From assembly GCA_947630145.1 (NCBI GenBank), contig CANRGL010000001.1:17289-81288 (forward strand): 64,000 nucleotides of DNA, read 5' to 3'. Every line of letters begins with the position of its first letter. The stretch's first letter is position 1. The notes under the pieces were generated by a model. It saw only the letters and a program-made list of their open reading frames with translations, was not told the origin of the DNA and made no database searches. The position numbers and the translations under genes are program-made. Positions 1 to 16,571 of this stretch are shown here, piece by piece. Origin of the DNA: an uncultured Clostridia bacterium. Its GTDB lineage: Bacteria; Bacillota; Clostridia; TANB77; CAG-465.

Positions 1-980
1 ACCCATTGGTCAACGAGATGCTGATATGGACAAACAATAATAACAGCTAATTTTCCACTTAGGTCTTTATATAATTGTGTTATAGCACCTAAACCTGTAT
101 ATGTTTTTCCAGTTCCTGTTGCCATATCAAATATTCCACGATAATTTTTTTCTTTCCAATTAGCTATCGCATTTTTTTGATAATTATGCAATAATACATC
201 TGCAGGTATTTCAGGACAATTAGTAACTGATTTTAATTTATTAATTTTCTCAGATTGAATTGACTGCTTTATTTTACTTGTAAATTCTTTTTCATCAATA
301 TTCCAATCTACGCATTCTTTTTTATAAGATAATATTCTATCTTTTGCAACTTTTGGAAAATCATATGTTACTGCACTTGTATCTTCATTATTCCATAATT
401 TATCAAATGCTTTTTCTTTTATCATTACTCTATCATTATCTTCCCATGATGTAAAAACATCCACTATTTCATAATTACTTATAAAAGCATTTTCTGTTTC
501 ATTCATAGAACCAGAAAAAGCAATTATATTATTTTCATTATCATACATTAAGCCAAGTTTTTCATGATATAAGCCTAATTTTTCATCTTTTAGTGAAAAA
601 GCAATTTTAATATCCAATTTTTCCTCAGCAATTAATGTTGCTAATAAGTTAAGTCTTTCTTCTTCAAAATAATTTTGAGGCTCTGTTATATATTGTAATA
701 ATGCTCTTTCAATAATGTTTTCTCTAACTTCATATCCTTTATTAATTGCCTCTATATCTTCTTCTGATAAATTTGGAGATACTATTAATTGAATTTTACC
801 TTTATTGTTCACTAATTTACTTATTCCATAAGAGATTTCTAACAAAGAAGATGATGAAAAAAAGCCAACACTTCTTTTATATAAAACTGATTCTTTTAAC
901 AAAGGAATATAAAATTCATTAACAATATCATCTCGTGGAGTTCTATATTCTTTTTTTAAATTAATATCTAATAGACTCAT
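1..980 (-). CDS. PLD-like nuclease domain + SF2 (DEAD/DEAH-type) helicase, N-terminal part; gene continues beyond window start
   Basis: The minus-strand reading frame starts with ATG at 980 (MSLLDINLKKEY...). It has an HxK...D...GSxN PLD-like motif (HEKLGLMYDNENNIIAFSGSMN). A Walker A motif (MATGTGKTYTG) lies near 1. It is not in the ORF track because it is truncated by the window edge. Confidence 0.6.
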   Translation of the reverse strand, partial: MSLLDINLKKEYRTPRDDIVNEFYIPLLKESVLYKRSVGFFSSSSLLEISYGISKLVNNKGKIQLIVSPNLSEEDIEAINKGYEVRENIIERALLQYITEPQNYFEEERLNLLATLIAEEKLDIKIAFSLKDEKLGLYHEKLGLMYDNENNIIAFSGSMNETENAFISNYEIVDVFTSWEDNDRVMIKEKAFDKLWNNEDTSAVTYDFPKVAKDRILSYKKECVDWNIDEKEFTSKIKQSIQSEKINKLKSVTNCPEIPADVLLHNYQKNAIANWKEKNYRGIFDMATGTGKTYTGLGAITQLYKDLSGKLAVIIVCPYQHLVDQW

Positions 981-1005
981 TTTTTACCATCCTTACATTT
1001 ATATA

Positions 1006-2142
1006 TTATAAACTATTTAATGCATTAATTAAAGTATCAATATCATCCTTATTATTAAAATAATTTAACCCAACTCTTACTGTTCCACCATACTCAAGAG
1101 AACCTATAAATTCATGTATAAGAGGTGCACAATGAAACCCTGTCCTTACACATATATCAAATTCCTCATCTAATATTTTACCAACATCTTCAGAAGTATA
1201 CTTATCTACGCTAAAAGAAACAACTCCAAAAATTTTAGATAAATCATCTGGGGCATAAACATTAACTCCTTTTATAGACGACAACTGTTCTATTAAATAC
1301 ATTGTTAAGTTGCTTTCATGTTCAAATACTTTTACTTGATTTAGCCAGTCAATACTAACATTTAAACTAGATATAGCTACAATATTTGGGCTTCCAGCTT
1401 CATATCCTTCTGGGAAACTACACGGCATATTTGGATTCATGGTGTCTGAACCTGTTCCACCAAATATATTAGGTTTTATTATATCATCCTTTAATTTTAT
1501 ATACCCAGCTACTCCAAAAGAAGCATATAATGATTTATGACCTGCAAAAACAATATAATTTATATTACTATAATCGTTTATTTTTACAATACCATATCCT
1601 TGAGATGCATCTAATATGTTTATAGAATTATAGGTCTTTCCCAATTCAAATACCTCATTATAAGGAAGTAAATATCCTGTCACATTACTTACTTGTGAAA
1701 TAAAAATTGCAGCTGGATTATTTAAAATAAATAAATCTTTTGTTTTTTCGATATCTAATTTCCAAGTTTTATTATTAAATGGAAGTACCTTAATTGTAAT
1801 TTGTATTCTCTTTTTTAGTTCTTCTAATGGTCTTATTATAGAGTTATGTTCAAAAGGACTTACATAGACACAATCTCCTTTTTTTAAATTTATTCCAAAA
1901 ATAATATCATTTAAAGAACTGGTAGCAGAACTTGTAAAAACAACATTACCCTTATTTATATTGTTTAATTCTAAAATCTTCTTTCTAACATTTTCTTTTA
2001 TTATAGAAGCTTCTCGAGCAGGCTTATAACTTCCTCTTCCAGTGTTGAAAGCATTTCTATTTGCTCTATCTAATTCTTTATATACAATTTCTGGTTTTGG
2101 ATATGTAGTCGCTGCATTATCTAAATAAATCATATTGTACAC
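1006..2142 (-). CDS. class V aminotransferase / cysteine desulfurase (SspA/DndA/IscS-like)
   Basis: 378 aa. PLP-lysine motif HKSLYASFGVAGY and DASQ motif, fold V architecture. Lies 1 bp downstream of the big ATPase gene. Confidence 0.75.
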   Translation of the reverse strand: MYNMIYLDNAATTYPKPEIVYKELDRANRNAFNTGRGSYKPAREASIIKENVRKKILELNNINKGNVVFTSSATSSLNDIIFGINLKKGDCVYVSPFEHNSIIRPLEELKKRIQITIKVLPFNNKTWKLDIEKTKDLFILNNPAAIFISQVSNVTGYLLPYNEVFELGKTYNSINILDASQGYGIVKINDYSNINYIVFAGHKSLYASFGVAGYIKLKDDIIKPNIFGGTGSDTMNPNMPCSFPEGYEAGSPNIVAISSLNVSIDWLNQVKVFEHESNLTMYLIEQLSSIKGVNVYAPDDLSKIFGVVSFSVDKYTSEDVGKILDEEFDICVRTGFHCAPLIHEFIGSLEYGGTVRVGLNYFNNKDDIDTLINALNSL

Positions 2143-2143
2143 C

Positions 2144-5100
2144 TCACATATATTTTTTTATTATATTAACTAAAACACTTATCTTTTCTTTTTCTGTTAA
2201 AGAATCTCCGTATTCATTTATTACCTCTTCGATATTATTTCTCATAGTGTTTCCAATTGCTGAGATTTCATCATTTGAAATAATATATTTCTCTATTTTT
2301 TCACTACCATTAACTAGCAACAATTTATTACTTTCCTCTTTACAGTTACTTTTGTCATTTTTAACATTTTTTATATTTCCAATCATTTCTTTTAAATTTT
2401 CATTAAAACTTGTATAGTCACTTGGCTGCCAATCTTCTATATAAAATCCTGTTAAAATTTTTGCAATTTTCTCAATAACATCGTATTCGTCATGAGATGT
2501 TAAATTTCTAACATAATCTATAAATTCTTTTGTTCTAAATTCATAAATTACATACGAATTGTCTAATTCATTATCTTCATAAAATTCTTTTAATAAAGAT
2601 GTTAAACTTCCTTTAAAGCTTTTATTAAGAATTTCTTTTGTCTTAATAACCAACTTTTCTGAATATGTTGAAATAAAATTATCAAAGATTTTTTTCATAT
2701 TTTTAATTTCTTCTACTATCTTTAGATAATTAGTTGTATTAAATATATCACATAAAATTTTATACACAAATTCATTATTATTTATATCTGGCTTTAACAA
2801 TTCATTTTTTACATAGATATATTCTTCTTTTATTCCAAGATTATTAGTTTCTAAAGAATATTCTCTTAATATTCTTGGTAATGCTAAAACCCATCTTCTC
2901 ATATTATCTATTAGCTTTTTTAAATTTATTCTTTGAGTATCTAAATTAGGTACATCAAATATGTACATTAAATTTGACAAATATTTAATTTTATCTGCAG
3001 TTCCTTTTTCTGTTAATATAAAATATTTTTCTGGATTTTCATTTATTTTTATTAAATTAGTAGCATCTAAGTCTATTTCTTTATTCATGAAATAAATAAC
3101 AATTATATCTGAATAATTATATAAGGCCATTGAAATTAAAATAGGAATAATTCCTTTTCTAACAGCATATGGTTTACTTTGTAATTTTTTATATATTTTA
3201 TCAAATCCAATTTTATTGTTTTCACTTTCAGAAATAAATTTATTTATTAATTTAATAGTTTCACTTATAGATGGATTATTCTTTTTTTCAACAATAGCTT
3301 TATATATTGTTGCTTCAGCACTAGTTTTACTTTTTATTAAACTTTCATCATTATTTAATATTGTTTCTATTACTATATCTCTTGCTTTCTTTATAGGAGC
3401 AGACAGATCTCTTTTATTTATCATTTCATTATTGATAATAGGAGTTTTATCAAAAATTTTCATACATATATTTGATAAAAAAGCACTTATATTACTAACC
3501 TTTTTAAATGTCTCATTTTTATATAAATATTCTTGTATATTATCGTTTGAAAAGTACAATTTAACTTGTTCATTTATTGCCTCAATATTTTCCTTTTTTA
3601 TTAATTCTAATTCATTACCAATTTCATCTTTATTATTTGAATTTAAAATAAGATATTCTACTGCCCTATATTCCCTTAATAAAGAAATTATTGTTTTTGG
3701 AAAAATTGTTTTTGGTATTTTTAATACTACTTGTTCATTATTTTTTTTAGAGAAGTAATCTCTAATTTCTTGTATATTTCTTGACTCTCTTATTAAGTTT
3801 ATTACAATTCCATCACAATATTTTTTTTCAAATAATAAATCAAATTTACTTAAAGAAATAAGTTCTCTTTCATTCATAAATATATTGGAGAAAAATCTCG
3901 TAATTTTGAATTCTTCATTATATCTTCTTGGCAAAGAATAAATAGGATTAATAATCTCATTTAAAGTTCCTATTATATCTATGTCATAAAATTCAGACTC
4001 ACTTAATCTTTTTATTTCTTTTGATATTTCTCTATTATATATAGTTGAAAAATCTATTTCATTTGTAATTTTTTTTCGTTTTACTATGCTTTTTTCTATT
4101 AAATTTTCAATAGTTGTTTCATATTGTTCTTGAGATAAATTTAAAGATTCTTTTATTGTTTTATCATCTGGAATTAAATTTTCTAAATCATTTATCATAT
4201 ATATAATAGCTATTGATTTTATAATATTTTCTTCATTCTCACTTCTACACTTACTAATTGCATTTTCAGACTTAACCCATATCTCTTTTACATGTTGTTC
4301 GTTCTCTTTTTTTAACAGAGGTTTAAAATAATCATATATTTTATTTATATTAAATAAATCACCTGTGTTTTTTTCATTTTCTATAAAGCTTTTTAAACTA
4401 TTTGCATCATCATCAGTTAAAAAAGTAAATAATGTTCTTTCGTTCTGTGCAATTTTTTCAGATAGTTCAATAAGTGAATATGTAGTTATTGGATTAAGTG
4501 GAAAACATCCTTTAAATAGTATTTCTTCTATATTTTCGACATTTTTAAATATATTATTTTCTTTTAAATTATCATAAAAATTTACATTTTTATCATAGTA
4601 ATTATTATAATATTTTTCAAATCCTTCTTTTTTCTGTATTGCATAAGAAACTATTTCATAATTTTGTTCTAAACCTCTATTAAAGTATATTTCTTTAAAT
4701 CTGCCTTCAACAGTCTTGAATGCATTAGCTCTATCTTCATCTAAATTATTTGCGTATTGATTCATAGTCTTATGAGTTATGCAACTTAACAAAATTTGTT
4801 CATTATTTCCAGTTCTATTAGCTAATTCTGCAAAATCTTGCAATAATTTTAAATCTCTCATCATATGAGAATTATCCAAATATTCAAGAAATTTACTAAA
4901 TTCATCAAATACAATAAATATTCCTTTGTATCCTTTTTTTCCTAATTCGTAAGCCATATCTTTATAAGTTTTTATAATATCTGAATTAACTAGTGGATTA
5001 AACTCCTGGCCATGCAAAATACAACTATACACATTTTTAAAAATTTCGTAGTGCCTCTCCGAATAATTTTTTAATCCTTGTTTTAATTCTTTTAAATTAC

Positions 5101-5653
5101 AATCATACTCTTTCAAACATTTTTTTATTTCATCAATTGCATCCTTATAATTTTCTTCCCATTTTTCTATTACCTTTATAGCCACATCAAAATATGTATT
5201 TATAATTACATCTGATAATTTTTCTCTTTCAAGTGCTTCAGATAATGCTAACAAAAAAGCTTGATTTAAATCTCCATAATTACTATTTATTATTACTGGC
5301 ATTATTTTTTGTTTTTCTTTTCTTATTTTGCTAATCATTTCATATAATTCATTATCAATTTTTTTTATTTTTAAAATAAAATCATTTATATATGAAATAT
5401 CTTCTTTTTCATAGTCATCTAATAAAGTAATTAAAACAAGTAATAAATGTGACTTTCCTTTTCCGTAAGGTCCTATCAAAGTCGTAGCTCTATTTTTCCC
5501 ACTAATTATACTATTTAAATAACTTTTTAATAGCTCACATCCATCTTTTGTAGGTATATATTCTTTTAATTTTTCTATATTATTTATATCAAATTGTAAA
5601 TTTACTGAATATTGAAAATTTTCATTTACTCCTATTAAGTCTGTATATTTCAT
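2144..5653 (-). CDS. large P-loop NTPase, BrxC/PglY (DUF499)-like; candidate SspC-type ATPase
   Basis: 1169 aa with an N-terminal Walker A (LIGPYGKGKSHLL). Its size and P-loop context resemble BREX BrxC. It overlaps the upstream gene by 4 bp (ATGA), which suggests translational coupling. Confidence 0.5.
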   Translation of the reverse strand: MKYTDLIGVNENFQYSVNLQFDINNIEKLKEYIPTKDGCELLKSYLNSIISGKNRATTLIGPYGKGKSHLLLVLITLLDDYEKEDISYINDFILKIKKIDNELYEMISKIRKEKQKIMPVIINSNYGDLNQAFLLALSEALEREKLSDVIINTYFDVAIKVIEKWEENYKDAIDEIKKCLKEYDCNLKELKQGLKNYSERHYEIFKNVYSCILHGQEFNPLVNSDIIKTYKDMAYELGKKGYKGIFIVFDEFSKFLEYLDNSHMMRDLKLLQDFAELANRTGNNEQILLSCITHKTMNQYANNLDEDRANAFKTVEGRFKEIYFNRGLEQNYEIVSYAIQKKEGFEKYYNNYYDKNVNFYDNLKENNIFKNVENIEEILFKGCFPLNPITTYSLIELSEKIAQNERTLFTFLTDDDANSLKSFIENEKNTGDLFNINKIYDYFKPLLKKENEQHVKEIWVKSENAISKCRSENEENIIKSIAIIYMINDLENLIPDDKTIKESLNLSQEQYETTIENLIEKSIVKRKKITNEIDFSTIYNREISKEIKRLSESEFYDIDIIGTLNEIINPIYSLPRRYNEEFKITRFFSNIFMNERELISLSKFDLLFEKKYCDGIVINLIRESRNIQEIRDYFSKKNNEQVVLKIPKTIFPKTIISLLREYRAVEYLILNSNNKDEIGNELELIKKENIEAINEQVKLYFSNDNIQEYLYKNETFKKVSNISAFLSNICMKIFDKTPIINNEMINKRDLSAPIKKARDIVIETILNNDESLIKSKTSAEATIYKAIVEKKNNPSISETIKLINKFISESENNKIGFDKIYKKLQSKPYAVRKGIIPILISMALYNYSDIIVIYFMNKEIDLDATNLIKINENPEKYFILTEKGTADKIKYLSNLMYIFDVPNLDTQRINLKKLIDNMRRWVLALPRILREYSLETNNLGIKEEYIYVKNELLKPDINNNEFVYKILCDIFNTTNYLKIVEEIKNMKKIFDNFISTYSEKLVIKTKEILNKSFKGSLTSLLKEFYEDNELDNSYVIYEFRTKEFIDYVRNLTSHDEYDVIEKIAKILTGFYIEDWQPSDYTSFNENLKEMIGNIKNVKNDKSNCKEESNKLLLVNGSEKIEKYIISNDEISAIGNTMRNNIEEVINEYGDSLTEKEKISVLVNIIKKYM

Positions 5654-6507
5654 AGTATTCCTCCTTCGAAATATTCTTTCATAATATCCTCAAGAGATAA
5701 TTTCTTTTGAAAATAAACCATATTCAAGCCTGCAGTTCTGTTAATAATAATTAAATTATTTCTTTTCATTTCATCTAAATATTCGTTTATTAAATTTTTA
5801 TCCAAATTTAATAACTTAGCAGGACTATTATCTAATTTTAGTAGTTCATCTATGCTTATATAGTCCTTGTCATTTACAAGTTGCTCTATTAAGTAAAAAA
5901 CAATTAAATAGTTCAAATTTCTATAATCTGGTCTATTCCTTTCATAAGTATCTCTATCTATTTTCTTTATTAAATTTAAATCTGATAATGGTGATATAAA
6001 GTTATTTTCAGGATTATCAATTTTCTCATCAATAGCATATGTTTTTATTATCATGTTCACTTCATCTTGTAATATATTTTCATTATATTCTAGTTTTTCA
6101 TTTTTTAGATTTGTAACCAACTGCTCATAAATATCTCTTTTTGAAAATGACTTTCTTAAACATTTATTAAAAAACATATTATATATATAAGCATCATCTA
6201 AATTTAGCATCATATTAACATGTACTAGCCACCATGAAAATATATCTTCTAAATATGGATCATAATTCCCTATTAAATTTCCAAATTCTGATAGTTTTAT
6301 TTCTCTGTTTTCTTCTTTAATTAAGCAAGTAGCACTCATCCAATATTTTAACGATTTAACCATATTGTTTCCAATTCCCAATATGTCTGTTGCTTCTGCA
6401 GAAGAAAAAACTTTATTATTATTTTTTACATTTCTTATTCCTTTAGCCAGCCATCCTTCTCTTATTGAAAAGCTTTCATGTCTTTTCAGTTTCAATTTTA
6501 TATCCAT
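5650..6507 (-). CDS. hypothetical protein, possible SspB-like (DUF4007-like) component
   Basis: 285 aa with an N-terminal HESFSIREGWLAKG motif. It sits between the PAPS-reductase-like gene and the ATPase gene with 5 bp and -4 bp spacing. Confidence 0.3.
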   Translation of the reverse strand: MDIKLKLKRHESFSIREGWLAKGIRNVKNNNKVFSSAEATDILGIGNNMVKSLKYWMSATCLIKEENREIKLSEFGNLIGNYDPYLEDIFSWWLVHVNMMLNLDDAYIYNMFFNKCLRKSFSKRDIYEQLVTNLKNEKLEYNENILQDEVNMIIKTYAIDEKIDNPENNFISPLSDLNLIKKIDRDTYERNRPDYRNLNYLIVFYLIEQLVNDKDYISIDELLKLDNSPAKLLNLDKNLINEYLDEMKRNNLIIINRTAGLNMVYFQKKLSLEDIMKEYFEGGIL

Positions 6508-6512
6508 TCATA

Positions 6513-8264
6513 TTACCCCTTACCTTGTTTTGTTCTTAAAACTTTTTTCATATAACATCCACCACTAAAGTGTTTAACGCATTCTAGACAACTTACACAT
6601 TTATTTTCATCTATTTTATATAAAATATTAAAATTATCTCCGACTTGCTTATCTAAATGCTTTATTGTAATTGCATTAAATTTACAAACACTTTCACATG
6701 CCATACATGCTATACACGTTTGAAATTTTGTAACTTGGTTTTTTATTAACATTTCTGTATTCTTACTATTATTAAATATTTTTGTTTCTTTTAATACTGA
6801 TATTTTTAACAAGTTTTGACCAAATTTTCCCCTAAGTTTCAATATAGGTTCTTTTGTTTTCTTATCCAAAACATATACCTCTCCTAGTCTTTTATTTCCA
6901 ATGCTAAAATCAATTATTCCAAAAGGTTTAAATAATTCATATAAGTTACTATCAATAGTTTTATTTAGCTCGAAATTATATGTATTTTCTTCCAAAACAC
7001 ATGGCTTAAAGCTTAAAATAGCATTAGAACTATATTTTAAGCCATTTCCTCCTTGTCTAGCTTTCCAACCACCAGAATTAATATATTCTTTTGGATCAGG
7101 TTTTCCAACTTGAGTTGCAAAATCTAATAAAACATTATGAAATTTATCATATTGTTCTTTCATATATATATTTGATAAATATTCTGACCAAGAAGAATTA
7201 TTTGGGCAACACCAACATCCAACTCTTGAAAATCCTTTTCTATATGCACTGTTGAAAGGTATTTTTTTTGTTAATATATATAACCATACATCAAAATCTA
7301 ACCAATCTATAATTGGTGCAATAGTCTGTTGTTTTGTAATTTTTGTGCCTACACTTTCTCTTTCATATTTACTTCTTGCTAATGATTCATTCCTTCTTAA
7401 TCCTTGAAATGTTAAAATTTTTAATTTATCTTTAAATGTAGATTCAATTTTTCTAGTAATTGCACCTGTTTTAAATATTGTACAACACCATCTCATAACT
7501 CTACTAGGAGGTCCTATAACTTTGCACAATTCATTAAAATTTTGTTCCTTATTCTTAGCTATCAATAATGGAGTTGCAGGGTGAGATTTTTTAAATTCAT
7601 TTATATATTCTTTTGTTTCAGGATATTCTAGTGTAGTATCTCCATATATATGTATTATTTTTTCAGTATTAAGAGCATTTATAACTAAATCACTTGTAAC
7701 AGTTGAATCTTTTCCACCAGAAAAAGATACAAACATTGTGTCAATAGTATATTGATTTGTAATTTTTTTTATATAATCATGTGCCTCCGTAACTATAGCA
7801 TTATATCTTATTTTATTAGCTTCAATAAATTTCAAAATATATTGTTGATTAAAAAAATTATCTTCATATACTCTGTTTTTTTCTTTATTTTCTATTATCA
7901 TGTTTCTAATTTCATTTGCATCTTTATTTTCGATTATGTCTTTAATAACAAATCTGTGTTTCTTTCCATCAATAAAGTAGTTATTACCTGATGTATTCCA
8001 TATTGATTTTTCAGCATATTTAAAAGGTTCTCCCTCTATTACTTCTATCAATAATCTTTCTTCAGGAAAAACAGGTCTAATATCTGTCCCTATATATACA
8101 CCATCACCATTACATATAGAACATTTTTTTTCAAAAATAGGAATATTACAATTTTTACAATAATATATTTCTGATTTATCAACATATGTTCTTCCATTGC
8201 AAACAGGACATGTACTTGTTTCGCACATTAAATTATCACAATTATTACATACATATCTAATCAT
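6513..8264 (-). CDS. PAPS reductase-family PP-loop ATP pyrophosphatase (SspD/DndC-like) with N-terminal Zn-ribbons and C-terminal 2x[4Fe-4S] ferredoxin domain
   Basis: PP-loop SFSGGKDS. Cys clusters CWCCP and CxxC x4 at the N-terminus. C-terminal CIACMACESVC...CVSCLECVKH. The ORF extends to 8327 but AGGAGG + ATG (MIRYV) at 8264 is the likely start. Confidence 0.7.
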   Translation of the reverse strand: MIRYVCNNCDNLMCETSTCPVCNGRTYVDKSEIYYCKNCNIPIFEKKCSICNGDGVYIGTDIRPVFPEERLLIEVIEGEPFKYAEKSIWNTSGNNYFIDGKKHRFVIKDIIENKDANEIRNMIIENKEKNRVYEDNFFNQQYILKFIEANKIRYNAIVTEAHDYIKKITNQYTIDTMFVSFSGGKDSTVTSDLVINALNTEKIIHIYGDTTLEYPETKEYINEFKKSHPATPLLIAKNKEQNFNELCKVIGPPSRVMRWCCTIFKTGAITRKIESTFKDKLKILTFQGLRRNESLARSKYERESVGTKITKQQTIAPIIDWLDFDVWLYILTKKIPFNSAYRKGFSRVGCWCCPNNSSWSEYLSNIYMKEQYDKFHNVLLDFATQVGKPDPKEYINSGGWKARQGGNGLKYSSNAILSFKPCVLEENTYNFELNKTIDSNLYELFKPFGIIDFSIGNKRLGEVYVLDKKTKEPILKLRGKFGQNLLKISVLKETKIFNNSKNTEMLIKNQVTKFQTCIACMACESVCKFNAITIKHLDKQVGDNFNILYKIDENKCVSCLECVKHFSGGCYMKKVLRTKQGKG

Positions 8265-8385
8265 TTTATCTCCTCCTATTTTATCTAAAATCAAAAAAAT
8301 TATATCATATTTTTTTTGGAGAAACAATTAATAAATAAAAATTTTCTCCAGTTTTTAAAAAATTTATAGACTAGTCTAAATTAGC

Positions 8386-11160
8386 CTAGTCTATGTATTT
8401 TAAAATATCCCACTGATTAATTTCATCCTCATATTTTTCTCTACTTTCATAAATGCAATCTGTACTTGAATCTAAATAAAATTTTTTTCTATTTATAAAC
8501 TGTCTAATATAAAATTCTTCAACATTAATATTATATTTTTCTTCTATTTCATTTTTTATCTCTTTTATATATTTTTTATTTTTATTAACAAAACTATTTA
8601 TAAACTTCTCTCTTGTAGCAGACTCTTCAGTTTTAATAAATATAGTATTATTTTTCATTCTGAATCTTTTTACTTTCGGAATAATCATAATCAAGTTTTC
8701 ATAAAAACAATCTGGAAAATTATTTTTTAAAATTTTATTTTTAAAATCAGTATTTAATGTATATAAATTAAAATATTCATTTTCAGGAATAACCTTTTCA
8801 ATTTCCTCAATAAAAAGATTTATATCTTCCATAAAAATGCCCATGTCATTAAGTTTTTTTATTGTAATATATTTTTCATCTGATATTTTAAATAATTTCT
8901 TATCATAAATAAATTTATACAAATAACTAAAAAATGTTGAGCCTATCTTTTTCATTTCTTCAGGTATTTCGTAATAATCGTTAGAAATAATTATATCTTT
9001 AAGATAGCTCTCTAAATTTACTATGTTGTCTTTTATAATATAATTTCCCCTTAATTTATATCCTAATTTACTCAAATTTAATGAATTTAAAAGTCTAAAA
9101 TCATTTACATCGAATAAATCTGTTAACATTTTTTTCATTGTAGCTATAGAATATATATCTTCTTTTAGTTTTTCTTTCATAACCTCAAATTGTTTATTAT
9201 CAAATAACTGTACATTACATATAAGCATACTTAAATTTATATAATGGCTAAAGTTATTAACTACATATGATTTGAATGTATTTAACTTATGACCATAATT
9301 GTTATACATATATTTAACAAAATCATCAATACTAATAGGAGAAAGTTCTTGAATTTTCTCATCAACAAACTCTAGTTTATTATTACAATTTATAAATATA
9401 TCTGGCATTCTTGAATAAACTATACCTTCATCAAATTTTCCTAACACCTTTTTACATAAATTATGAAGTTCGTATTCGTTTCTTATATCTAATTTTTTCA
9501 TTAATAAAGGATTATCTTTATAAAATAATTCTGCTGAATATATTCCTGGCTCAATATCAAACATTTCTTTAAGTTCAGCTATGTCATCTTCTTCTATTTC
9601 ATTACAATTATAATATCTAAAACTTTTTCCTATTGTATCTAATATATAGTTTGTCCTTGTTAGTCTCGAATCTATATTTCTAAAGTCTTCTGCTGTTAGA
9701 AAATCTAAATTAAGTTTATATTCAATAACTATTTGATTATAATTTATCATTAATTCATTATAATCTACTCTTCTGTCTTCTTTTTTTAAATAAGCAATAA
9801 TAATAGGAATCGTATCTGCAACAATATTTTCTTCATTATATCTTATAATATTGTACTCTTTTCTTAAAATTTCTATCTGCTCACTTGTTAGCCTATTATC
9901 TTCTAAAAGCTCTGATGGTTTTAACTCACCATGTTTACCTTTCTCTCGCAAATAATAATATACATAATTTTCTAAATTAAATAATTTGCAAAACAATTCT
10001 TCTTTAAAATCATATTTTTCAATATAATCTAAATATTTTTCTTCTTCAATATGGTTAATTTTTTTCAATTCACTTGCTATTATTTGCCTTATTCTTTCTC
10101 TAGTTAGGTTATACTCATTACCTATTTGCACTAATGTATAACCTGATAATTTTTTCATTACAATATCATAATGATTATTATTTTTTTTAATTTTATCTAA
10201 TTCTTCTATTAATTTTGGATAAGTACTTCTATATTTACCATTCTCATAAATAATTTCATTGTTTTCTAGTAATTCATTAAAGAATTTATCAAATTTTTCT
10301 ATATTATACCTTTTTGCTTCGATAATATTTTTAATTTCTTCTTTTAATGCGACTCCTGTTTTTAGCTCTTTTCTCATTATAGTTAATATAATTTTCTTAT
10401 CTAAATTCTTCTTTATGTCTAAATCAATTATCATTTGATTGTATGCATTTAATAATCTTTCTTTCTTTGCAGCAGTTAGGTGATATTTATCTCCAATTGT
10501 TTCATCTATATCTTCAAATCTAATATTTTTTTCAACAAGTAGCTTTTCTATTAAACACCTAGAAAGTCCATATCTTTCTAATTCATATACAGAATATGGC
10601 ACATTATAATTATCATTATTTTTACTTAATTTTTTCATTTCAACTAATTCAGATATAATCTTATTTAACTTTTCTGTTGTATATCCTTTTTTTTCTATTA
10701 TTTGTACAAGTTCTTCTATCGAAAAAGTATTATGTCTAAATGAATTATTTATTATTTCCAAAGTTTTTTGAGTAGTCAATCCAAGATTTATGTTTTTATT
10801 TTCAAAAAAAGCATTTAAAGATGTAATTATTTTAGCATATGTAGAATCTCCTATATTATATTTTTCTTTTATAGTTTCATTTATGTCTTCAATTTCTATT
10901 TTTTTGCTAAATAATTTATCTATTATATTTTTTGATAATCCGTACTTAATAAGTTCATATATAGAATATTTTTTCTTATCTTCACTTATCTTCATTAAAC
11001 TAGTTTTTATTTTTAACTTTTTTTCGCTATGTGAACCTAAATACTTATCTACACAATCTATATTACTATATATATCTTCTAGATTTATTCCTTCATTATC
11101 TAAATTCATTATAGTATTTAATGGTATACCGTATTCACAAAGCAAATAAATCGATTTCAT
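8386..11160 (-). CDS. large hypothetical DNA-binding protein: three alphaCTD-like helix-hairpin-helix repeats + sigma-70 region-4-like HTH
   Basis: 924 aa. A roughly 55-aa repeat occurs three times (YELxxYGLSxxxIxKLxxxxIxxEDIxETIxxKY). Residues about 335-365 (LSGYTLVQIGNEYNLTRERIRQI) match a sigma-70 r4.2 pattern. Confidence 0.4.
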   Translation of the reverse strand: MKSIYLLCEYGIPLNTIMNLDNEGINLEDIYSNIDCVDKYLGSHSEKKLKIKTSLMKISEDKKKYSIYELIKYGLSKNIIDKLFSKKIEIEDINETIKEKYNIGDSTYAKIITSLNAFFENKNINLGLTTQKTLEIINNSFRHNTFSIEELVQIIEKKGYTTEKLNKIISELVEMKKLSKNNDNYNVPYSVYELERYGLSRCLIEKLLVEKNIRFEDIDETIGDKYHLTAAKKERLLNAYNQMIIDLDIKKNLDKKIILTIMRKELKTGVALKEEIKNIIEAKRYNIEKFDKFFNELLENNEIIYENGKYRSTYPKLIEELDKIKKNNNHYDIVMKKLSGYTLVQIGNEYNLTRERIRQIIASELKKINHIEEEKYLDYIEKYDFKEELFCKLFNLENYVYYYLREKGKHGELKPSELLEDNRLTSEQIEILRKEYNIIRYNEENIVADTIPIIIAYLKKEDRRVDYNELMINYNQIVIEYKLNLDFLTAEDFRNIDSRLTRTNYILDTIGKSFRYYNCNEIEEDDIAELKEMFDIEPGIYSAELFYKDNPLLMKKLDIRNEYELHNLCKKVLGKFDEGIVYSRMPDIFINCNNKLEFVDEKIQELSPISIDDFVKYMYNNYGHKLNTFKSYVVNNFSHYINLSMLICNVQLFDNKQFEVMKEKLKEDIYSIATMKKMLTDLFDVNDFRLLNSLNLSKLGYKLRGNYIIKDNIVNLESYLKDIIISNDYYEIPEEMKKIGSTFFSYLYKFIYDKKLFKISDEKYITIKKLNDMGIFMEDINLFIEEIEKVIPENEYFNLYTLNTDFKNKILKNNFPDCFYENLIMIIPKVKRFRMKNNTIFIKTEESATREKFINSFVNKNKKYIKEIKNEIEEKYNINVEEFYIRQFINRKKFYLDSSTDCIYESREKYEDEINQWDILKYID

Positions 11161-11322
11161 TTCTACAACTCCTATCTAATTAATTTCTACTTCATATTCT
11201 TTTCAGATTTTATTTACAAGCATTATTATATAACAAAACTAAAAAAATACCAATAGATATACATTTTTATTCTATTTCGTAAAAAAATGCTCACAGTAAT
11301 TACCTATAAGCATCTAAATATT

Positions 11323-11562
11323 TTATTTTATTTCATTTAATATTCTTTTTATGTTTCTTGCTTGTCTTCCACTTATTCTATTATTAACTCTAGCTAGATT
11401 AACTAATGCTAAGACATTATCAAAAGTACAAACAGCTGTATTTCCTCTACTTTTTTTCTCATAATAATATTTCATCTCATCTATTACATAATCAGGTGTA
11501 TATTTGGGAAGTTTATCTAATTCAGATTCCATGATTTTTCCTCTTTCTACAATTTGTGTCAA
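11323..11562 (-). CDS. small hypothetical protein divergent from XRE regulator
   Basis: 79-aa ORF, divergently arranged to the HTH gene with a palindromic operator between them. Confidence 0.35.
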   Translation of the reverse strand: MTQIVERGKIMESELDKLPKYTPDYVIDEMKYYYEKKSRGNTAVCTFDNVLALVNLARVNNRISGRQARNIKRILNEIK

Positions 11563-11608
11563 TTTATTTTAGCATATTTTCAACTTTAATGCAACAAACT
11601 ACTTCTAT

Positions 11609-11638
11609 AAATTGAAAAAATTTGCATTTTTTCAATTT
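11609..11638. promoter_or_regulatory. perfect 13-bp inverted repeat (AAATTGAAAAAAT-ttgc-ATTTTTTCAATTT), candidate operator of XRE regulator
   Basis: Read directly from the sequence in the divergent intergenic region 11563..11698. Confidence 0.45.
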
Positions 11639-11698
11639 GCCAAAGTGGTATTTGATTTTAATTTTATATAATTTTATATGGAAAAGAGGTTATAAGTT

Positions 11699-11950
11699 AT
11701 GGAATTATCAGAAGCAATTAGAAAAAGAATTAAATATTATTTGGGAAAAAATAATATGAATGTCTGGGCTTTATGTAAGTCTTCAGGAGTACCATGTTCA
11801 ACTATTTCTACTTTTATGAGTCATAGGACAGATCTTATAAGAATGGATACTTTACTTCACATTTGTGAAGGATTTAGCATTACTTTAGAAGAATTTTTTT
11901 CTGACGATATATTTAATAATACATATCACGATATTAACAACAAAGACTAA
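11699..11950 (+). CDS. XRE/Cro-C1 family HTH transcriptional regulator
   Basis: 83 aa with a HTH_3-like core (NMNVWALCKSSGVPCSTISTFMSHRTDLIRMDTLLHICEGF). One of only two plus-strand genes. Confidence 0.7.
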   Translation: MELSEAIRKRIKYYLGKNNMNVWALCKSSGVPCSTISTFMSHRTDLIRMDTLLHICEGFSITLEEFFSDDIFNNTYHDINNKD

Positions 11951-11978
11951 TAGATTTTCTTTTCTATTAGTCTTTTCA

Positions 11979-12383
11979 TTATATAATTTCAATTATTTCA
12001 TCAATTAAAACTTCAGTTTTATTTTCTAAAATTATTTTTCTATTATACATATCTATTTTTTTCGCATTACCACTTATAGTTACATACTCTCCCCCTAATT
12101 TCTTTTTATCAGGTATATAATAAGTGATTGTAACTTTAGGACTATTTAACAAATTTAATTTAATTTCTTGTAATTTTAAATCAATTTTAGTTTTTTCTTC
12201 ATCGTCAAGTTCAATTCTATCTTCAGTAATTCTTGCAGTTTCTTTAATACTATCTCCATAACCAGTAAGTGCTGCAAATGGAGCAAATTGTGCTGCTCTT
12301 TGTTCTGAAGATAATCTTGGATGCTTTTTTGAAACATGATGTGGTAAATTTATTATATCATCATACTCGTTCATATTTCTCAC
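11979..12383 (-). CDS. YolD-like protein (accessory to Y-family polymerase)
   Basis: 134 aa with a RAAQFAPFAALTGYGDSI motif typical of the YolD family. Directly downstream of the polymerase gene. Confidence 0.65.
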   Translation of the reverse strand: MRNMNEYDDIINLPHHVSKKHPRLSSEQRAAQFAPFAALTGYGDSIKETARITEDRIELDDEEKTKIDLKLQEIKLNLLNSPKVTITYYIPDKKKLGGEYVTISGNAKKIDMYNRKIILENKTEVLIDEIIEII

Positions 12384-13883
12384 CTATTCCTTATGTCCTC
12401 CTATTTGAGAATTTCTTTCTATTGTTGTTCCATCTTTTTCTAAATTCATTCCTTTAAGAATAGAATTTTTACCAAATTTCTTTTTTATATCTATAATAGT
12501 ATGTTGCAAATTGTTTTCTTCTTTTAGTTTTTCTTTCATTTCAATTTTTTCTCTGTTTTGTTTATCATAATCTATAAAAAAACAAATTTGTTCATTTGGC
12601 TTTTTCTTTTCTGCCTCATATTCATTAACTACATTATTTGCTACAACATTTATTCTCCTTACAAGCAAATTTTTATTTATAATTCTTTCGTATAATTTTT
12701 CTATTGCCTCCATAATTATTTTTGTTGATGATGAATAATCTTCTAAATTTATTGTACCATGAGCATGTTTAGGAATTTCTCTACCATATCTATCTGTTGT
12801 AATTTCTCCATAATAAGATTCTTTTATCTTAGTATCTATTAAATTATCTATATCATAACCTATCGTCAAAACAAGTTGATTTGTTACTAAATGCTTTTCT
12901 ACCAAATCTAATACCAATAAATCTGTCATCTCTTTAACAATAAGTTTTGTTTGTTTATAATTATATGGGCAATGCAAAACTTGTCCTGAACTTATGCTAT
13001 TTGTGGACGGTTTAAAAGATTTTACTTCTTTCATAGTACAAGGCTCATATCCCCACGCATGATCTATTAAAAATTCTGCGTTTATTCCAAATAACTTATA
13101 TAATAATTCTTCATTATTTAAAGAACATCTAGCTATATCTCCCATAGTATATAAATGATGTTTTTCAAGTTTCTTTGCATATCCATTTCCCACTCTCCAA
13201 AAGTCTGTAATAGGTCTATGACTCCAAAGTAACTTCCTATAACTCATTTCATCCAATTCAGCAATCCTTACACCATTTTTATCTGCCACTTTATGTTTTG
13301 CCTCAATATCCATAGCAATTTTTGCTAAATACATATTAGTTCCTATTCCTGCTGTTGCTGTTATTCCAGTTAATTTATAAACATCATGTATCATTGTTGT
13401 TACCATTTCTTTTGGAGTCATTTTAGCATTTTTTAGATAATTAGTAATATCACAAAAGACCTCATCAATCGAATACGCATATATATCTTCACTAGCAACA
13501 TATTTCAAATATACATTATAAATTGTTGTACTATATTTCATATACAAAGACATTCTAGGTGGTGCAATAATATAGTCTAATTCTAAATTATTGTCTTGTT
13601 TTAATTCTCTATCATCATATGATTTTCCAGTAAATATATGATTTTTAGCTTTAAATCTTCTATTATTATTAACTTCCTTAACTCTTTGTATAACTTCAAA
13701 TAATCTAGCTCTACCTGATATTCCATAAGACTTTAATGAGGGAGTTACTGCTAAACATATTGTTTTTTCAGTTCTTGACTTATCTGCAACAACTAAATTT
13801 GTTCTTAACGGATCTAAATTTCTTTCCCTACATTCTACTGATGCGTAAAAACTTTTCAAATCGATACAACAAAAAACACTCAC
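12384..13883 (-). CDS. Y-family (UmuC/DinB/UvrX-like) translesion DNA polymerase
   Basis: IDLKSFYASVECRERNLDP N-terminal catalytic motif, about 500 aa. The ORF track extends to 13946 but AGGAGGG + GTG at 13883 is the likely start. Confidence 0.85.
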   Translation of the reverse strand: MSVFCCIDLKSFYASVECRERNLDPLRTNLVVADKSRTEKTICLAVTPSLKSYGISGRARLFEVIQRVKEVNNNRRFKAKNHIFTGKSYDDRELKQDNNLELDYIIAPPRMSLYMKYSTTIYNVYLKYVASEDIYAYSIDEVFCDITNYLKNAKMTPKEMVTTMIHDVYKLTGITATAGIGTNMYLAKIAMDIEAKHKVADKNGVRIAELDEMSYRKLLWSHRPITDFWRVGNGYAKKLEKHHLYTMGDIARCSLNNEELLYKLFGINAEFLIDHAWGYEPCTMKEVKSFKPSTNSISSGQVLHCPYNYKQTKLIVKEMTDLLVLDLVEKHLVTNQLVLTIGYDIDNLIDTKIKESYYGEITTDRYGREIPKHAHGTINLEDYSSSTKIIMEAIEKLYERIINKNLLVRRINVVANNVVNEYEAEKKKPNEQICFFIDYDKQNREKIEMKEKLKEENNLQHTIIDIKKKFGKNSILKGMNLEKDGTTIERNSQIGGHKE

Positions 13884-13938
13884 AAAATTCCCTCCTACTT
13901 TCTTAACAATACATATTATATAATAATATTTTTTATTT

Positions 13939-13950
13939 GTAAACATTTGT
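13939..13950. promoter_or_regulatory. Cheo/LexA box-like GAACAAATGTTT overlapping -35 of TTTACA-17-TATAAT promoter of the Y-family polymerase operon
   Basis: The minus-sense sequence GTGAACAAATGTTTACA-aataaaaaatattatta-TATAAT lies about 55 bp upstream of the GTG start. It matches the Gram-positive consensus GAAC-RNRY-GTTY. Confidence 0.5.
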
Positions 13951-14088
13951 TCACTATTTTACAAAAAAATATAATAGGGACATAACTGCCCCTATTTTAA
14001 TAATGTATGAAATAAACTTATAAAAAAGACTACTACAAATAATACACATCCCATTATAAATCCCATTTCTATCCCTCCTAACACTATA

Positions 14089-14316
14089 CTATCTTTTTGT
14101 GTCGAGAGTTCTAAATATGCTTTGATATTCATTTTGCAATTTACTTATACTTCCATCTTTAGAGCTATGACTCATAATATATTCTGATATTTCTCTTTCT
14201 ATATTTTTTAATTCCTCATCAGAATAATCTTTATTTTCTATATTTATTCCTGCATTTTTTACTAATTCAATCTCTTTATTAGTGCATTTATCTATTAAAT
14301 TCATATTACTTATCAT
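14089..14316 (-). CDS. hypothetical protein
   Basis: 75-aa ORF within the conjugation gene block. Confidence 0.3.
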   Translation of the reverse strand: MISNMNLIDKCTNKEIELVKNAGINIENKDYSDEELKNIEREISEYIMSHSSKDGSISKLQNEYQSIFRTLDTKR

Positions 14317-14373
14317 CCTTTCATTTTAAACCAGTATTATTATAACACATATTTTATTCTTATTCTATAATTT

Positions 14374-15483
14374 TTATTCGTATTTTGGACTGCCATAGCC
14401 CATAATCTGCCCATCATCAAAGGAATACACCCTTTCTGCACATTTATCATCTGTATTTCCCTCAATAGTGTATATAGTTCTATTTGTAATATCTGTTCGA
14501 GTAACAATACCAACATGATCTGATATTCCATCTTGATTATCGTTCCAATCGAAAAATATAATGTCCCCAATTATTGGATAATAACTTTCTCCTCTATCAT
14601 GCCATTCATTTTTTTCTTTAAACCAATTTATTCCATCAGAGCAAACAGAAAATTTTGGAATAATACCTTTTTCTATATACCCACATTCACTGGCACACCA
14701 ACTAACAAAACAAGCACACCATTCTACTCTAGAATCAAAGCCATACCAACTCCAAAACTTATCTCCACCCTCATTACCAATTTGAGATTTTGCAATTAGC
14801 ACAATTTCACTATTAGGTATTTGTGAAGAGTCATAATTATCATCTCCATCATTGTTAAAAATAGCAGCTACAAAACCTGCTATTAAAACAATAACCACAA
14901 TAATAACTACTGCTATCCAACCACCTGCTATAATTGCAGAAATAATAGCCTTTGTTGCTGCTATTATTGCCTTAACTGCAGTTATTGTTGCTTTTATAGT
15001 TGCTTTAATTCCTTGTGCAGTTATTTTAGCTATATGTTTTGTTAATTTTACTGCTTTTTGACTTGCCTTTATACTTTCTTTTGCAACTTTTTTCCCTGTT
15101 TTTGCAACATTTTCAGCAGTTTTTATACTTTTTTTTGTTAGTTCAGTGTTCTTTTTTAGATTATTTATTATTCTTTTTTCTTTTATTCTTGTTTTAAAAG
15201 TATTTATTTTTTTCTTTTCTTTTATAAAGTTATTTTGCGTTTCTTTTATAGATTTTTTTCCTAATTCATTTGTTTTTTCTAATCCTTTTCTAGATGTATA
15301 ACTTATACTATTCTGTATTTTTCTTCCTGCATATTCTTCACCTGAATTATTATCATCATCCATAGTAATTTCATTTATTCGTTCTTTTGTTGTTATCAAA
15401 TTGTTCTTTATTTTTTCAACTCCAACAATATTCTTATCTAATTTTCTTATTGTTTCTTTAGGTTTAATTTTTATTTCAGACAT
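14374..15483 (-). CDS. membrane-anchored CHAP-domain peptidoglycan hydrolase (conjugation-associated cell wall hydrolase)
   Basis: C-terminal CHAP Cys/His region (EWCACFVSWCAS...HVGIVT). Central TM segment and lysine-rich coiled region. Fits the PrgK/TcpG functional class. Confidence 0.7.
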   Translation of the reverse strand: MSEIKIKPKETIRKLDKNIVGVEKIKNNLITTKERINEITMDDDNNSGEEYAGRKIQNSISYTSRKGLEKTNELGKKSIKETQNNFIKEKKKINTFKTRIKEKRIINNLKKNTELTKKSIKTAENVAKTGKKVAKESIKASQKAVKLTKHIAKITAQGIKATIKATITAVKAIIAATKAIISAIIAGGWIAVVIIVVIVLIAGFVAAIFNNDGDDNYDSSQIPNSEIVLIAKSQIGNEGGDKFWSWYGFDSRVEWCACFVSWCASECGYIEKGIIPKFSVCSDGINWFKEKNEWHDRGESYYPIIGDIIFFDWNDNQDGISDHVGIVTRTDITNRTIYTIEGNTDDKCAERVYSFDDGQIMGYGSPKYE

Positions 15484-15556
15484 CTATTTATCACTCCCTT
15501 TCAATAATAAAAAAAGAAGTTGATTTTTCTCAACTTCCCTAATTTACTATAATATC

Positions 15557-16018
15557 TTATTTTGTTATATTAACAAGATAATCATAAAGTTTCTTAATAT
15601 CTGTCATATCTAACATTAAAGAAACCCCAATAACATCAATAGCACCATTATTATCTATTGGATATACTACTATTTCCATATTAGGCTCTTCGACCAATTT
15701 CTTATTTTCTAGACTTTCATAATATACTCCATATTCATCACCTTTAGGATAAAATCTTATCTTAAAAGTTTGTTCAATAGGAATAAAACATTTATAATCT
15801 TTCATATTTCCATCTAAAAAACTTTTTATATCTTCTCTTAATTCATCAACTTCATAACACATCAAATCATAACTACTATTTTCAAATTTTAATGTATAAT
15901 TACTAATTTTCCAATTAACATGAGCCCAACTATCATCTTCAACTTTTCTATATTTTTCATAACCATATATACACAGTTCAAGTTCGTCAAAACATAGTTT
16001 TACACTAACCTTATCCAT
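15557..16018 (-). CDS. hypothetical protein
   Basis: 153-aa ORF. Confidence 0.3.
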   Translation of the reverse strand: MDKVSVKLCFDELELCIYGYEKYRKVEDDSWAHVNWKISNYTLKFENSSYDLMCYEVDELREDIKSFLDGNMKDYKCFIPIEQTFKIRFYPKGDEYGVYYESLENKKLVEEPNMEIVVYPIDNNGAIDVIGVSLMLDMTDIKKLYDYLVNITK

Positions 16019-16046
16019 TTTTTCACTTCCTAATTATTTTACTTTT

Positions 16047-16469
16047 TTAATCCCAATTCATAATTTCTATATCTTCTATATTAAAATCTTTACCACATAT
16101 AGGACATTTACTTAAATTCTCTATAATATTCATTTTTTCATTACATTTAGAACATTTATATTCAGAAATGAAATCTTCATCATTTTTATCTAAAGCTATT
16201 AGTTTGAAGTAAAATTTATTTGTTATACTTTTACATTTTGGACATTGATATGTTTTATATCCATAATAATTTTCATCTAATATATATTTTTTTCCTTTTA
16301 ATATTTCGTTTAATTTTTCTCCATTTATTCCATCTTTATACCTTTTAATTAAATTAAATTTACTATCATATTTCATAAGTTCTGTCTTACTATCGAGCAT
16401 TCCTCTTCCTTCCATGAATTCAAATTCTTTTTTACATTTTTTACATACATATATCAAACCTTTTCCCAT
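16047..16469 (-). CDS. hypothetical zinc-ribbon protein
   Basis: 140 aa with several CxxC pairs (CKKCKK, CPKCKS, CSKCNE, CPICGK). Confidence 0.3.
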   Translation of the reverse strand: MGKGLIYVCKKCKKEFEFMEGRGMLDSKTELMKYDSKFNLIKRYKDGINGEKLNEILKGKKYILDENYYGYKTYQCPKCKSITNKFYFKLIALDKNDEDFISEYKCSKCNEKMNIIENLSKCPICGKDFNIEDIEIMNWD

Positions 16470-16571
16470 TTACATTCTCCTATTTTTATATTAAATTTAA
16501 TTATCTAGAAAAAATTTTTCTAAAAAATATTATAACACAATATTATTGCCGTTTCAAATATACTCTATTTT

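Follow-up and report, generated by a model that had tools for sequence, protein, structure and literature searches.

A Candidate Ssp-Type Phosphorothioate Writer, a Pbe Cassette and a Sigma-Like DNA-Binding Protein Arrayed on a Conjugative Element of a Gut Clostridia Bacterium

We analyzed a 64,000-nucleotide stretch of DNA from an uncultured Clostridia bacterium (GenBank assembly GCA_947630145.1, contig CANRGL010000001.1, positions 17,289 to 81,288 of the forward strand), referred to here in its entirety as the window. At its start, a set of DNA phosphorothioate (PT) writing genes of the Ssp/BREX-4 type, a Pbe cassette and the gene for a 924-aa sigma-like protein form one block. We favor, with some reservation, the view that this is a composite PT modification-restriction locus, carried as cargo of an integrative conjugative element (ICE) of a low-GC gut Clostridia bacterium, in which SspA-D would write PT, PbeABCD would act on unmarked DNA, and the 924-aa protein would serve targeting, scaffolding or regulation. 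The novelty lies in the joining of an Ssp/BREX-4-type writer to a Pbe cassette and a sigma-like partner; the individual parts are known. An initial annotation had proposed a new modification-plus-restriction variant of six genes. The combination is indeed new, but its parts are not, and the unit is longer than six genes. A metagenome contig (L001/L095) that is 100% identical to window positions 1-16507 and extends past the window start carries PbeB, PbeC and a putative PbeD beyond that point, so the defense unit comprises at least nine genes, from the 924-aa gene through the putative PbeD.

The core of the block is four tightly packed minus-strand genes encoding a protein of the phosphoadenosine phosphosulfate (PAPS) reductase type, a DUF4007/SspB protein, an SspC ATPase and a cysteine desulfurase. 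Their spacing is +5 nt, -4 nt (an overlap) and +1 nt (+10 nt with the desulfurase ATG start), in agreement with the -4 to +5 nt first reported. The PAPS-reductase-type protein matches Pfam PAPS_reduct (1.2e-34, residues 198-376) and Fer4_7 (1.2e-06), with a PP-loop, SGGKDS, at residues 203-208, a C-terminal 4Fe-4S ferredoxin motif at 537-585, two N-terminal CxxC...CxxC zinc ribbons and adjacent cysteines (CC) at 281/282 and at 373/374. Of the PADLOC models, BrxP fits it best (3.6e-83), with DndC (1.6e-12) and SspD (2.6e-11) far behind. The 285-aa protein is covered over its full length by Pfam DUF4007 (2.1e-76) and matches PADLOC SspB (2.1e-52), while the 1169-aa protein matches PADLOC SspC (6.6e-104) and BrxC (1.7e-30) and has a Walker A motif, GPYGKGKS, at residue 61. 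The desulfurase matches Pfam Aminotran_5 (6.2e-64), PADLOC SspA (5.8e-28) and DndA (3.3e-27) and NCBIfam TIGR01977 (3.2e-106), and contains the motifs AGHKSLY, with the pyridoxal phosphate (PLP) lysine, and GFHCAP, with the catalytic cysteine. All of these motifs are intact, and every component of an SspABCD module is matched, SspD by a BrxP-like protein. On this hidden Markov model (HMM) evidence the four genes very probably encode an Ssp/BREX-type-4-style PT writer, and the identities first assigned to them, as an SGGKDS PP-loop enzyme, a 285-aa protein, a BrxC-like ATPase and a desulfurase of an Ssp/BREX-4-type phosphorothioation set, are borne out by the Pfam and PADLOC models.

The form of the sulfur-handling enzyme is in keeping with published systems. 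BrxP is in effect an SspD-SspB fusion, and PT synthesis in Bacteroides needs no more than BrxP, BrxC and a cysteine desulfurase (PMC12914056). BrxP-type enzymes have an additional domain together with an Fe-S region rich in cysteine (PMC12839542), a description that the 604-aa protein fits. CpsC dinucleotides have been obtained from gut Clostridiales with sspBCD (PMC12914056). Compared with SspABCD of Vibrio cyclitrophicus, V. anguillarum and Escherichia coli 3234/A (Xiong 2020; Wang 2021, PMC8092258), the locus encodes the same four activities, but its PAPS reductase is a BrxP-type enzyme that carries zinc ribbons plus an Fe-S tail and matches the SspD HMM only weakly, its gene order is D-B-C-A, and its probable restriction partner is Pbe instead of SspE or SspFGH. 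Neither SspE (DUF262 plus DUF1524) nor an SspFGH-like trio is found among the annotated Pfam families from the HTH_26 gene to the integrases in L001/L095, and a direct scan from the 924-aa gene to a 59-aa open reading frame (ORF) gave no SspE or SspFGH match.

The writer also occurs with other neighbors. A search for SspB homologues returned a near-identical clade only (at least 73% identity) and no distant Ssp contexts; these were sampled by tblastn against plasmids. Plasmid pTS1 of Treponema saccharophilum (L088:7392-19312) has the same SspD-SspB-SspC-SspA order, with an SspD that is 41.6% identical and is missing from the PLSDB gene table. There, the genes after the writer encode a DEAD/DEAH helicase, an ATP-binding protein and a separate phospholipase D (PLD) protein, none similar to Pbe, and this trio may be another unnamed restriction partner for the D-B-C-A writer. 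The unrelated trio beside the Treponema writer shows that the D-B-C-A writer is mobile as a module and can be coupled with more than one kind of effector.

Downstream of the writer, the initial annotation had noted a PLD nuclease fused to a superfamily 2 (SF2) helicase and had placed the flanking genes outside the published partners. The domain reading stands, as the ORF that starts at 980 and is cut off by the window start matches Pfam PLDc_2 and ResIII, and SspE and SspFGH are indeed missing, but the gene itself is PbeA by its HMM matches, a published cassette member and not a new partner. The truncated ORF already matches PADLOC PbeA (3.8e-113), and the full 726-aa protein in L001 does so at 7.1e-247; it also matches NCBIfam dnd_restrict_1 ("DNA phosphorothioation system restriction enzyme") at 4.1e-155 and 517 bits, below the 600-bit cut-off. 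The full protein has PLDc_2, ResIII and Helicase_C domains, with HxK at 139 and DEAH at 398. The remaining members lie in the same contig. A 52-aa ORF that overlaps both of its neighbors is identified as PbeB by position only, there being no HMM for it, and the 674-aa PbeC matches its PADLOC model at 4.9e-106 and has the CxC motif CLC at residues 345-347. At the PbeD position after PbeC is a 185-aa ORF with no match in Pfam, PADLOC or NCBIfam scans; its existing annotation is PF27807 DNA_S_mod_dnd_assoc_4, marked weak, and BLAST relates it to annotated "DNA phosphorothioation-associated protein 4" at 1e-5 and 2e-3.

Pbe cassettes are known chiefly from another setting. DndCDEA-PbeABCD blocks a haloarchaeal virus in a PT-dependent manner in Haloterrigena jeotgali (PMC6459918), and PbeABCD has since been re-described as a CxC ABC-ATPase/DndE-anchored system that occurs with Dnd genes, with cytosine methylases or alone (PMC10853773). 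The PbeA-B-C order next to PT-writing genes, here followed by a putative PbeD, is the same in H. jeotgali and here, but the writer in our locus is of the Ssp/BREX-4 type and not DndCDE, an extra 924-aa gene heads the block, and the host is a gut Clostridia ICE and not a haloarchaeon. DndD and DndE were not found beside a DndC, the only DndD-like protein being PbeC (PbeC 4.9e-106 versus DndD 4.1e-35). We found no PbeABCD paired with an Ssp/BREX-4-type writer in the literature searched. Ssp had yet to be described when Pbe was surveyed in 2019, the survey of Ssp in 2021 sought SspE and SspFGH only (PMC8092258), and the 2026 gut PT paper nowhere mentions Pbe.

Evidence that the two halves travel together comes from relatives of the block. 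All relatives at least 49% identical to the 924-aa protein are followed by SspD-SspB-SspC-SspA-PbeA-PbeB-PbeC, which amounts to 8 distinct sequences from gut metagenome-assembled genomes labelled Clostridia, Eubacteriales, Bacilli and Firmicutes, with the 924-aa protein 49-100% identical across them. What lies upstream varies, from a Y-family polymerase with a YolD-like gene to a SWIM protein and others. Within our block only 25 nt separate the desulfurase gene (sspA) from the helicase gene (pbeA), the gap between the 924-aa gene and the PAPS-reductase-type gene is 58-121 nt depending on the start codon, and no terminator-like hairpin occurs from 11160 to 1. The same gene order in 8 distinct sequences despite differing upstream context, the tight spacing and the lack of an internal terminator-like hairpin together make functional coupling of Ssp and Pbe likely.

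The first gene of the block encodes a protein that we consider, on modeling and domain evidence, to be a catalytically inert DNA-binding protein composed of repeats like the C-terminal domain of the RNA polymerase alpha subunit (alphaCTD), a sigma region-4 helix-turn-helix (HTH) and about nine winged helices. It had been described initially as built from RNA-polymerase-like DNA-binding modules, and so it appears. The sole direct Pfam match is Sigma70_r4 (residues 338-368, 9.4e-06, 25.5 bits), and RpoD models match only by their last 30-60 residues. Sigma regions 2 and 3 were not found in Pfam and NCBIfam scans, and because they are missing, the protein is not a true sigma factor. Three N-terminal alphaCTD-like repeats can be seen by eye (YS[IV]YEL..YGLS....I.KL.....I..EDI.ETI..KY). 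Self-BLAST and BLAST against an alphaCTD sequence gave nothing significant; the alphaCTD assignment is based on Pfam matches in relatives and on alignment. Distant relatives have bona fide RNA_pol_A_CTD domains, two or three in each (1e-30 to 1e-33), and these align to residues 63-117 of our protein. An AlphaFold2 model (mean predicted local distance difference test score of 85.4) shows helix-hairpin modules and, after them, about nine units of helix-helix-helix-strand-strand topology. Foldseek against the PDB retrieved tandem winged-helix arrays (UFL1/DDRGK1, SelB, STK19 and TFIIIC) and sigma region 4, at a best E of 3.5e-3, and returned no enzyme fold. The best named relative is the MzaA C terminus (NCBIfam NF041931; 6.4e-07, 28.6 bits against an 800-bit cut-off). 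MzaA, of the MZA anti-phage system, is likewise a large sigma-like HTH protein of a defense cassette, but the two are alike only over ~70 residues surrounding the region-4 HTH, and the locus has no further Mza genes. A relationship of the family to SspB/DUF4007 was considered and rejected (hhalign probability of 0.2%).

The 924-aa protein belongs to a large family (c0); a search of clusters at 50% identity gave 1132 representatives at E<=1e-30. We surveyed its contexts in 80 species-level genome loci. The Ssp-Pbe arrangement accounts for 6 of the 80. In 29, the family member is followed by a protein of ~400 aa (c1) and an SNF2 helicase (c2); in another 9, c1 is followed by another gene or the contig end, at least 5 of these having a long c1 (540-570 aa), and in 3, c2 lies within three genes while c1 does not adjoin c0. 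Neighbors are heterogeneous, some of them housekeeping genes, in 30 loci, and 3 loci are at contig ends. A DGxxRR motif is invariant in c1, which also gives a weak ParB-superfamily signal (Pfam ddrB-ParB, weak in 3 of 19 members); the c1 profile had no match among solved structures. The c2 helicase of 18 of the 29 triads has a PbeA-type HKD domain at its N terminus (PADLOC PbeA, 4.8e-74). With 33-42% identity to the HKD of our PbeA, this domain is no more distant than Lactobacillales PbeA (35-38%) and closer than Ruegeria PbeA (25%). Triad genes overlap or abut, with the 924-aa relative lying -26 to +5 nt from the next gene. Triads occur in Bacillota, Leptotrichia and others (L006:10001-16553, L019, L041, L048, L062 and L070 among the loci), often beside type II restriction-modification genes. 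The triad is absent from PADLOC v2, in which its sigma-like and ParB-like proteins have no model. The sigma-like/ParB-like/HKD-SNF2 triad is a candidate undescribed defense system, and this family, with its triad, is the more novel lead.

Variations on the arrangement were also seen. Flavonifractor and Pseudoflavonifractor loci (L025:10001-15074 and L036:10001-15074) have two tandem sigma-like paralogues (905 and 660 aa), a pair that precedes the ParB-like and HKD-SNF2 genes. A long ParB-like partner (540-570 aa) follows the sigma-like gene in L026, L055, L074, L079, L083 and L084, and a 577-588-aa ParB-like form instead lies upstream of it in L076, L078 and L087. A Pfam HIRAN domain was present in 4 of 60 downstream proteins scanned; the scan did not name individual members, and the four are probably long ParB-like forms.

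Independently, genes that RefSeq annotates as "sigma factor-like helix-turn-helix DNA-binding protein" and that encode 1026-1080 aa lie immediately upstream of PbeA on plasmids, next to dndCDE on Ruegeria pTHAF33_d (L090:5921-13783), and with no modification genes on Lactiplantibacillus plantarum plasmids (L091:5759-13034), where PbeA is a helicase only (458 aa, without HKD). These proteins share with ours a similar size and the same position relative to PbeA, except that nothing intervenes in the plasmids, whereas in the Ssp-Pbe clade the Ssp genes lie between the 924-aa gene and PbeA. They match the N-terminal third of an HMM of 79 family sequences (7.6e-14 for Ruegeria and 1e-7 for L. plantarum), and pairwise BLAST and hhalign place the similarity around the HTH only. 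We found no mention of this fifth, sigma-like gene of Pbe cassettes in the Pbe literature searched. Three settings thus have a large sigma-like HTH protein next to a PbeA-type HKD helicase, and for this reason we assign the 924-aa protein to the restriction half of the locus.

Domain identities, gene order, co-inheritance and the ICE setting are observed, and these elements suggest a working mechanism. We infer PT writing by the Ssp genes and restriction by Pbe that would depend on it, along with any role of the 924-aa protein, in the following form. SspA would remove sulfur from cysteine, and the BrxP-type SspD, a PP-loop ATP pyrophosphatase with Fe-S cysteines, would relay it; SspB (DUF4007) would recognize and nick a short motif, and SspC, an ORC/Cdc6-like ATPase, would power the reaction, the four jointly marking host DNA with PT. 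On the Pbe side, PbeA, an HKD nuclease-SF2 helicase, the small PbeB, PbeC, a CxC ABC ATPase, and the DndE-like PbeD would act on incoming DNA that lacks the PT mark. The 924-aa protein would most likely serve restriction, whether as a subunit for targeting or scaffolding or by regulating the operon. That it is a subunit is plausible, although we would not rely on it.

Other readings of the writer genes fare poorly. Enzymes of the PAPS-reductase/PP-loop type and cysteine desulfurases occur in sulfate assimilation and tRNA thiolation, and weak CysH and CysD matches were obtained (~1e-11 to 1e-15, far below cut-offs). Such an operon, an alternative already raised in the initial annotation, is effectively refuted by the SspB (full-length DUF4007) and SspC matches; with PbeABCD adjacent, a location in ICE cargo and no sulfate-activation or tRNA-binding domains found, it is exceedingly improbable. 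BREX type 4 (BrxP-BrxC-PglZ-BrxL; Goldfarb 2015; PMC12914056; PMC12839542), whose PT-writing core has been validated experimentally, is a closer comparison, as it shares a BrxP-like reductase, a BrxC/SspC ATPase, DUF4007 and a linked desulfurase with our locus. A degenerate or variant BREX type 4 would account for a PAPS reductase that scores far better against BrxP than against SspD, for its BrxP-style C-terminal Fe-S region (PMC12839542) and for an ATPase that matches BrxC as well. However, DUF4007 is here a separate gene and not fused to BrxP, and PbeABCD stands in place of PglZ and BrxL, neither of which is present in the block or in ~9 kb downstream; PglZ occurs in 100% and BrxL in 96% of BREX type-4 loci (PMC12839542). 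A genuine BREX-4 locus on a Methanosphaera plasmid (L089) looks different, and the SspB and SspC HMMs score best. We consider BREX type 4 very unlikely.

Several observations count against the composite locus as a whole. Rakesh et al. doubt that Pbe is a dedicated PT-dependent restriction module (PMC10853773), Pbe activity has so far been shown with Dnd-type (double-strand) PT only and not with Ssp-type PT, and Pbe cassettes without any modification genes occur on Lactobacillales plasmids. A Pfam-A scan of the 1169-aa protein returned no family at E<=1, DUF499 included, so that of the two families named in advance as a check, DUF4007 was recovered and DUF499 was not; the existing annotation of an identical protein lists PF19557 BrxC-PglY_N, the difference looks like a library-version discrepancy that bears on DUF499 as a test, and the SspC and BrxC HMMs, which are decisive for its predicted identity, together with PF19557, serve the intent of that check. 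The C-terminal part of the Ruegeria and L. plantarum sigma-like proteins (~570 residues) has no match to the family HMM and is not detectably related to the 924-aa family, and with ~30 of 80 relatives in heterogeneous, partly housekeeping, neighborhoods, the family is not an obligate nuclease partner. Two or three independent systems could lie side by side in ICE cargo, a solitary PT writer with an epigenetic or redox role and a standalone Pbe, with the 924-aa protein belonging to Pbe or to neither. The Lactobacillales cassettes fit this, as do the 165 of 553 PbeAC pairs that are solitary (PMC6459918), the ~85% of sspBCD clusters without a known restriction partner (PMC8092258) and the Treponema writer with its unrelated trio. 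Set against it are the co-inheritance of the whole block, its order and tight spacing preserved, in 8 distinct sequences down to 49% identity in the 924-aa protein while the flanks differ, and the short sspA-pbeA gap in a block free of terminator-like sites; we judge independence unlikely.

Whether the 924-aa protein is a transcription factor only, exerting sigma-like or repressor-type control of the defense operon or of ICE genes, much as BrxR/CapW-type regulators do from the 5' end of defense cassettes, is a related question, and such a role is not exclusive of the composite locus. The protein contains only DNA-binding folds, the sigma-70 region-4 HTH among them, its gene is always first in the block, and its relatives precede several different cassettes and sometimes unrelated genes; the heterogeneous third of contexts fits a regulator or a stand-alone DNA-binding role equally well. 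Yet 924 aa with ~13 DNA-binding modules is very large for a repressor, the overlap or abutment of relatives with the next gene is frequent among subunits of one complex, and the lack of sigma regions 2 and 3 disqualifies the protein as a genuine sigma factor. A purely regulatory role is, in our estimation, doubtful. More speculatively, this large unnamed family may be a dedicated front end for PbeA-type HKD nuclease-helicases, either a DNA-targeting subunit or a decoy that senses phage factors aimed at host alphaCTD or sigma region 4, in which case the Ssp/Pbe hybrid and the triad would be two undescribed defense architectures.

The element that carries the block supports its description as conjugative cargo, which the initial annotation had also suggested. 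A relaxase, a type IV coupling protein and a VirB4-like ATPase lie at 17-27 kb (Table 1), chromosomal genes (RecG, GatB and ProS) begin at ~57 kb, and two tandem tyrosine recombinases lie ~3.2 kb past PbeD (L095:19293-21128), off the window start. With conjugation genes and a chromosomal boundary on one side and recombinases beyond PbeD on the other, the defense block is internal cargo of an ICE. The ICE also encodes a CHAP hydrolase, a sortase, a Toprim/DUF3991 primase-like protein, ParB, RhuM, an ABC exporter, three large SpaA/thioester adhesins and a 2405-aa SNF2/LPD16 polyvalent protein. No tRNA gene marking the integration site was found within the window. The window is ~25% GC, all of its 2-kb bins show negative GC skew (cumulative -9.1), and nearly every family-assigned ORF of at least 100 aa is on the minus strand; with uniformly negative skew and nearly all genes on one strand, the ICE is co-directional with the flanking chromosomal genes.

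Table 1. Coordinates of the defense block, its neighbors and the host element in the window
Feature	Position	Strand	Remarks
PbeA, N-terminal 326 aa (HKD/PLD nuclease and start of SF2 helicase)	1..980	-	Gene continues past window start
SspA/DndA-type class-V PLP cysteine desulfurase	1006..2142	-	378 aa from GTG; 375 aa from ATG at 2133
SspC/BrxC-family P-loop ATPase, 1169 aa	2144..5653	-	PADLOC SspC, BrxC
SspB (DUF4007), 285 aa	5650..6507	-	Pfam DUF4007, PADLOC SspB
SspD/BrxP-type PP-loop sulfurtransferase	6513..8327	-	604 aa from TTG; gene callers: ATG at 8264, 583 aa
924-aa sigma-like multi-HTH protein (family c0)	8386..11160	-	First gene of block
69-aa ORF	11323..11532	-	Directly upstream of 924-aa gene; predicted gene in L001/L095; membership uncertain
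83-aa Cro/C1-type HTH protein	11699..11950	+	Pfam HTH_26 5.3e-07; divergent from cluster
Y-family DNA polymerase (520 aa, IMS domains) and YolD-like gene (134 aa)	11979-13946	-	Directly upstream of defense block
ICE body	14374-56291		Conjugation, adhesin and partition genes
VirB4-like ATPase	17344-19686
T4 coupling protein	22646-24442
MobA/VirD2 relaxase	25382-26773

Between the block and the Y-family polymerase/YolD-like pair lies a terminator-like hairpin (11975..11942, after the YolD-like gene) that separates the pair from the cluster; the pair precedes the block in L012 too. The divergent HTH_26 protein is possibly a local regulator, although its membership in the cluster is uncertain. L008 has its homologue (cluster c25) upstream of the 924-aa counterpart, L003 and L010-L012 do not, and a small ORF homologous to the 69-aa ORF (c26) is likewise present in L008. 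A promoter scan was uninformative at 25% GC (101 sites versus 112 expected).

Gut metagenomes contain the Ssp-Pbe block in abundance, in Clostridia from both humans and animals, and we found no description of its sigma-like 924-aa partner in the literature searched. Only ~15% of sspBCD clusters have a recognized restriction partner, and both the mechanism of Pbe and its dependence on PT are disputed. The pairing of an Ssp/BREX-4-type writer with Pbe would offer a clean test of whether Pbe reads PT irrespective of the machinery that writes it. The recurrent sigma-like partner is a candidate for a missing component in targeting, sensing or regulation and might help explain the odd experimental behavior of PbeABCD alone. 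Carriage on a conjugative element means that the locus may affect both gene flow and susceptibility to phages in the gut microbiome.

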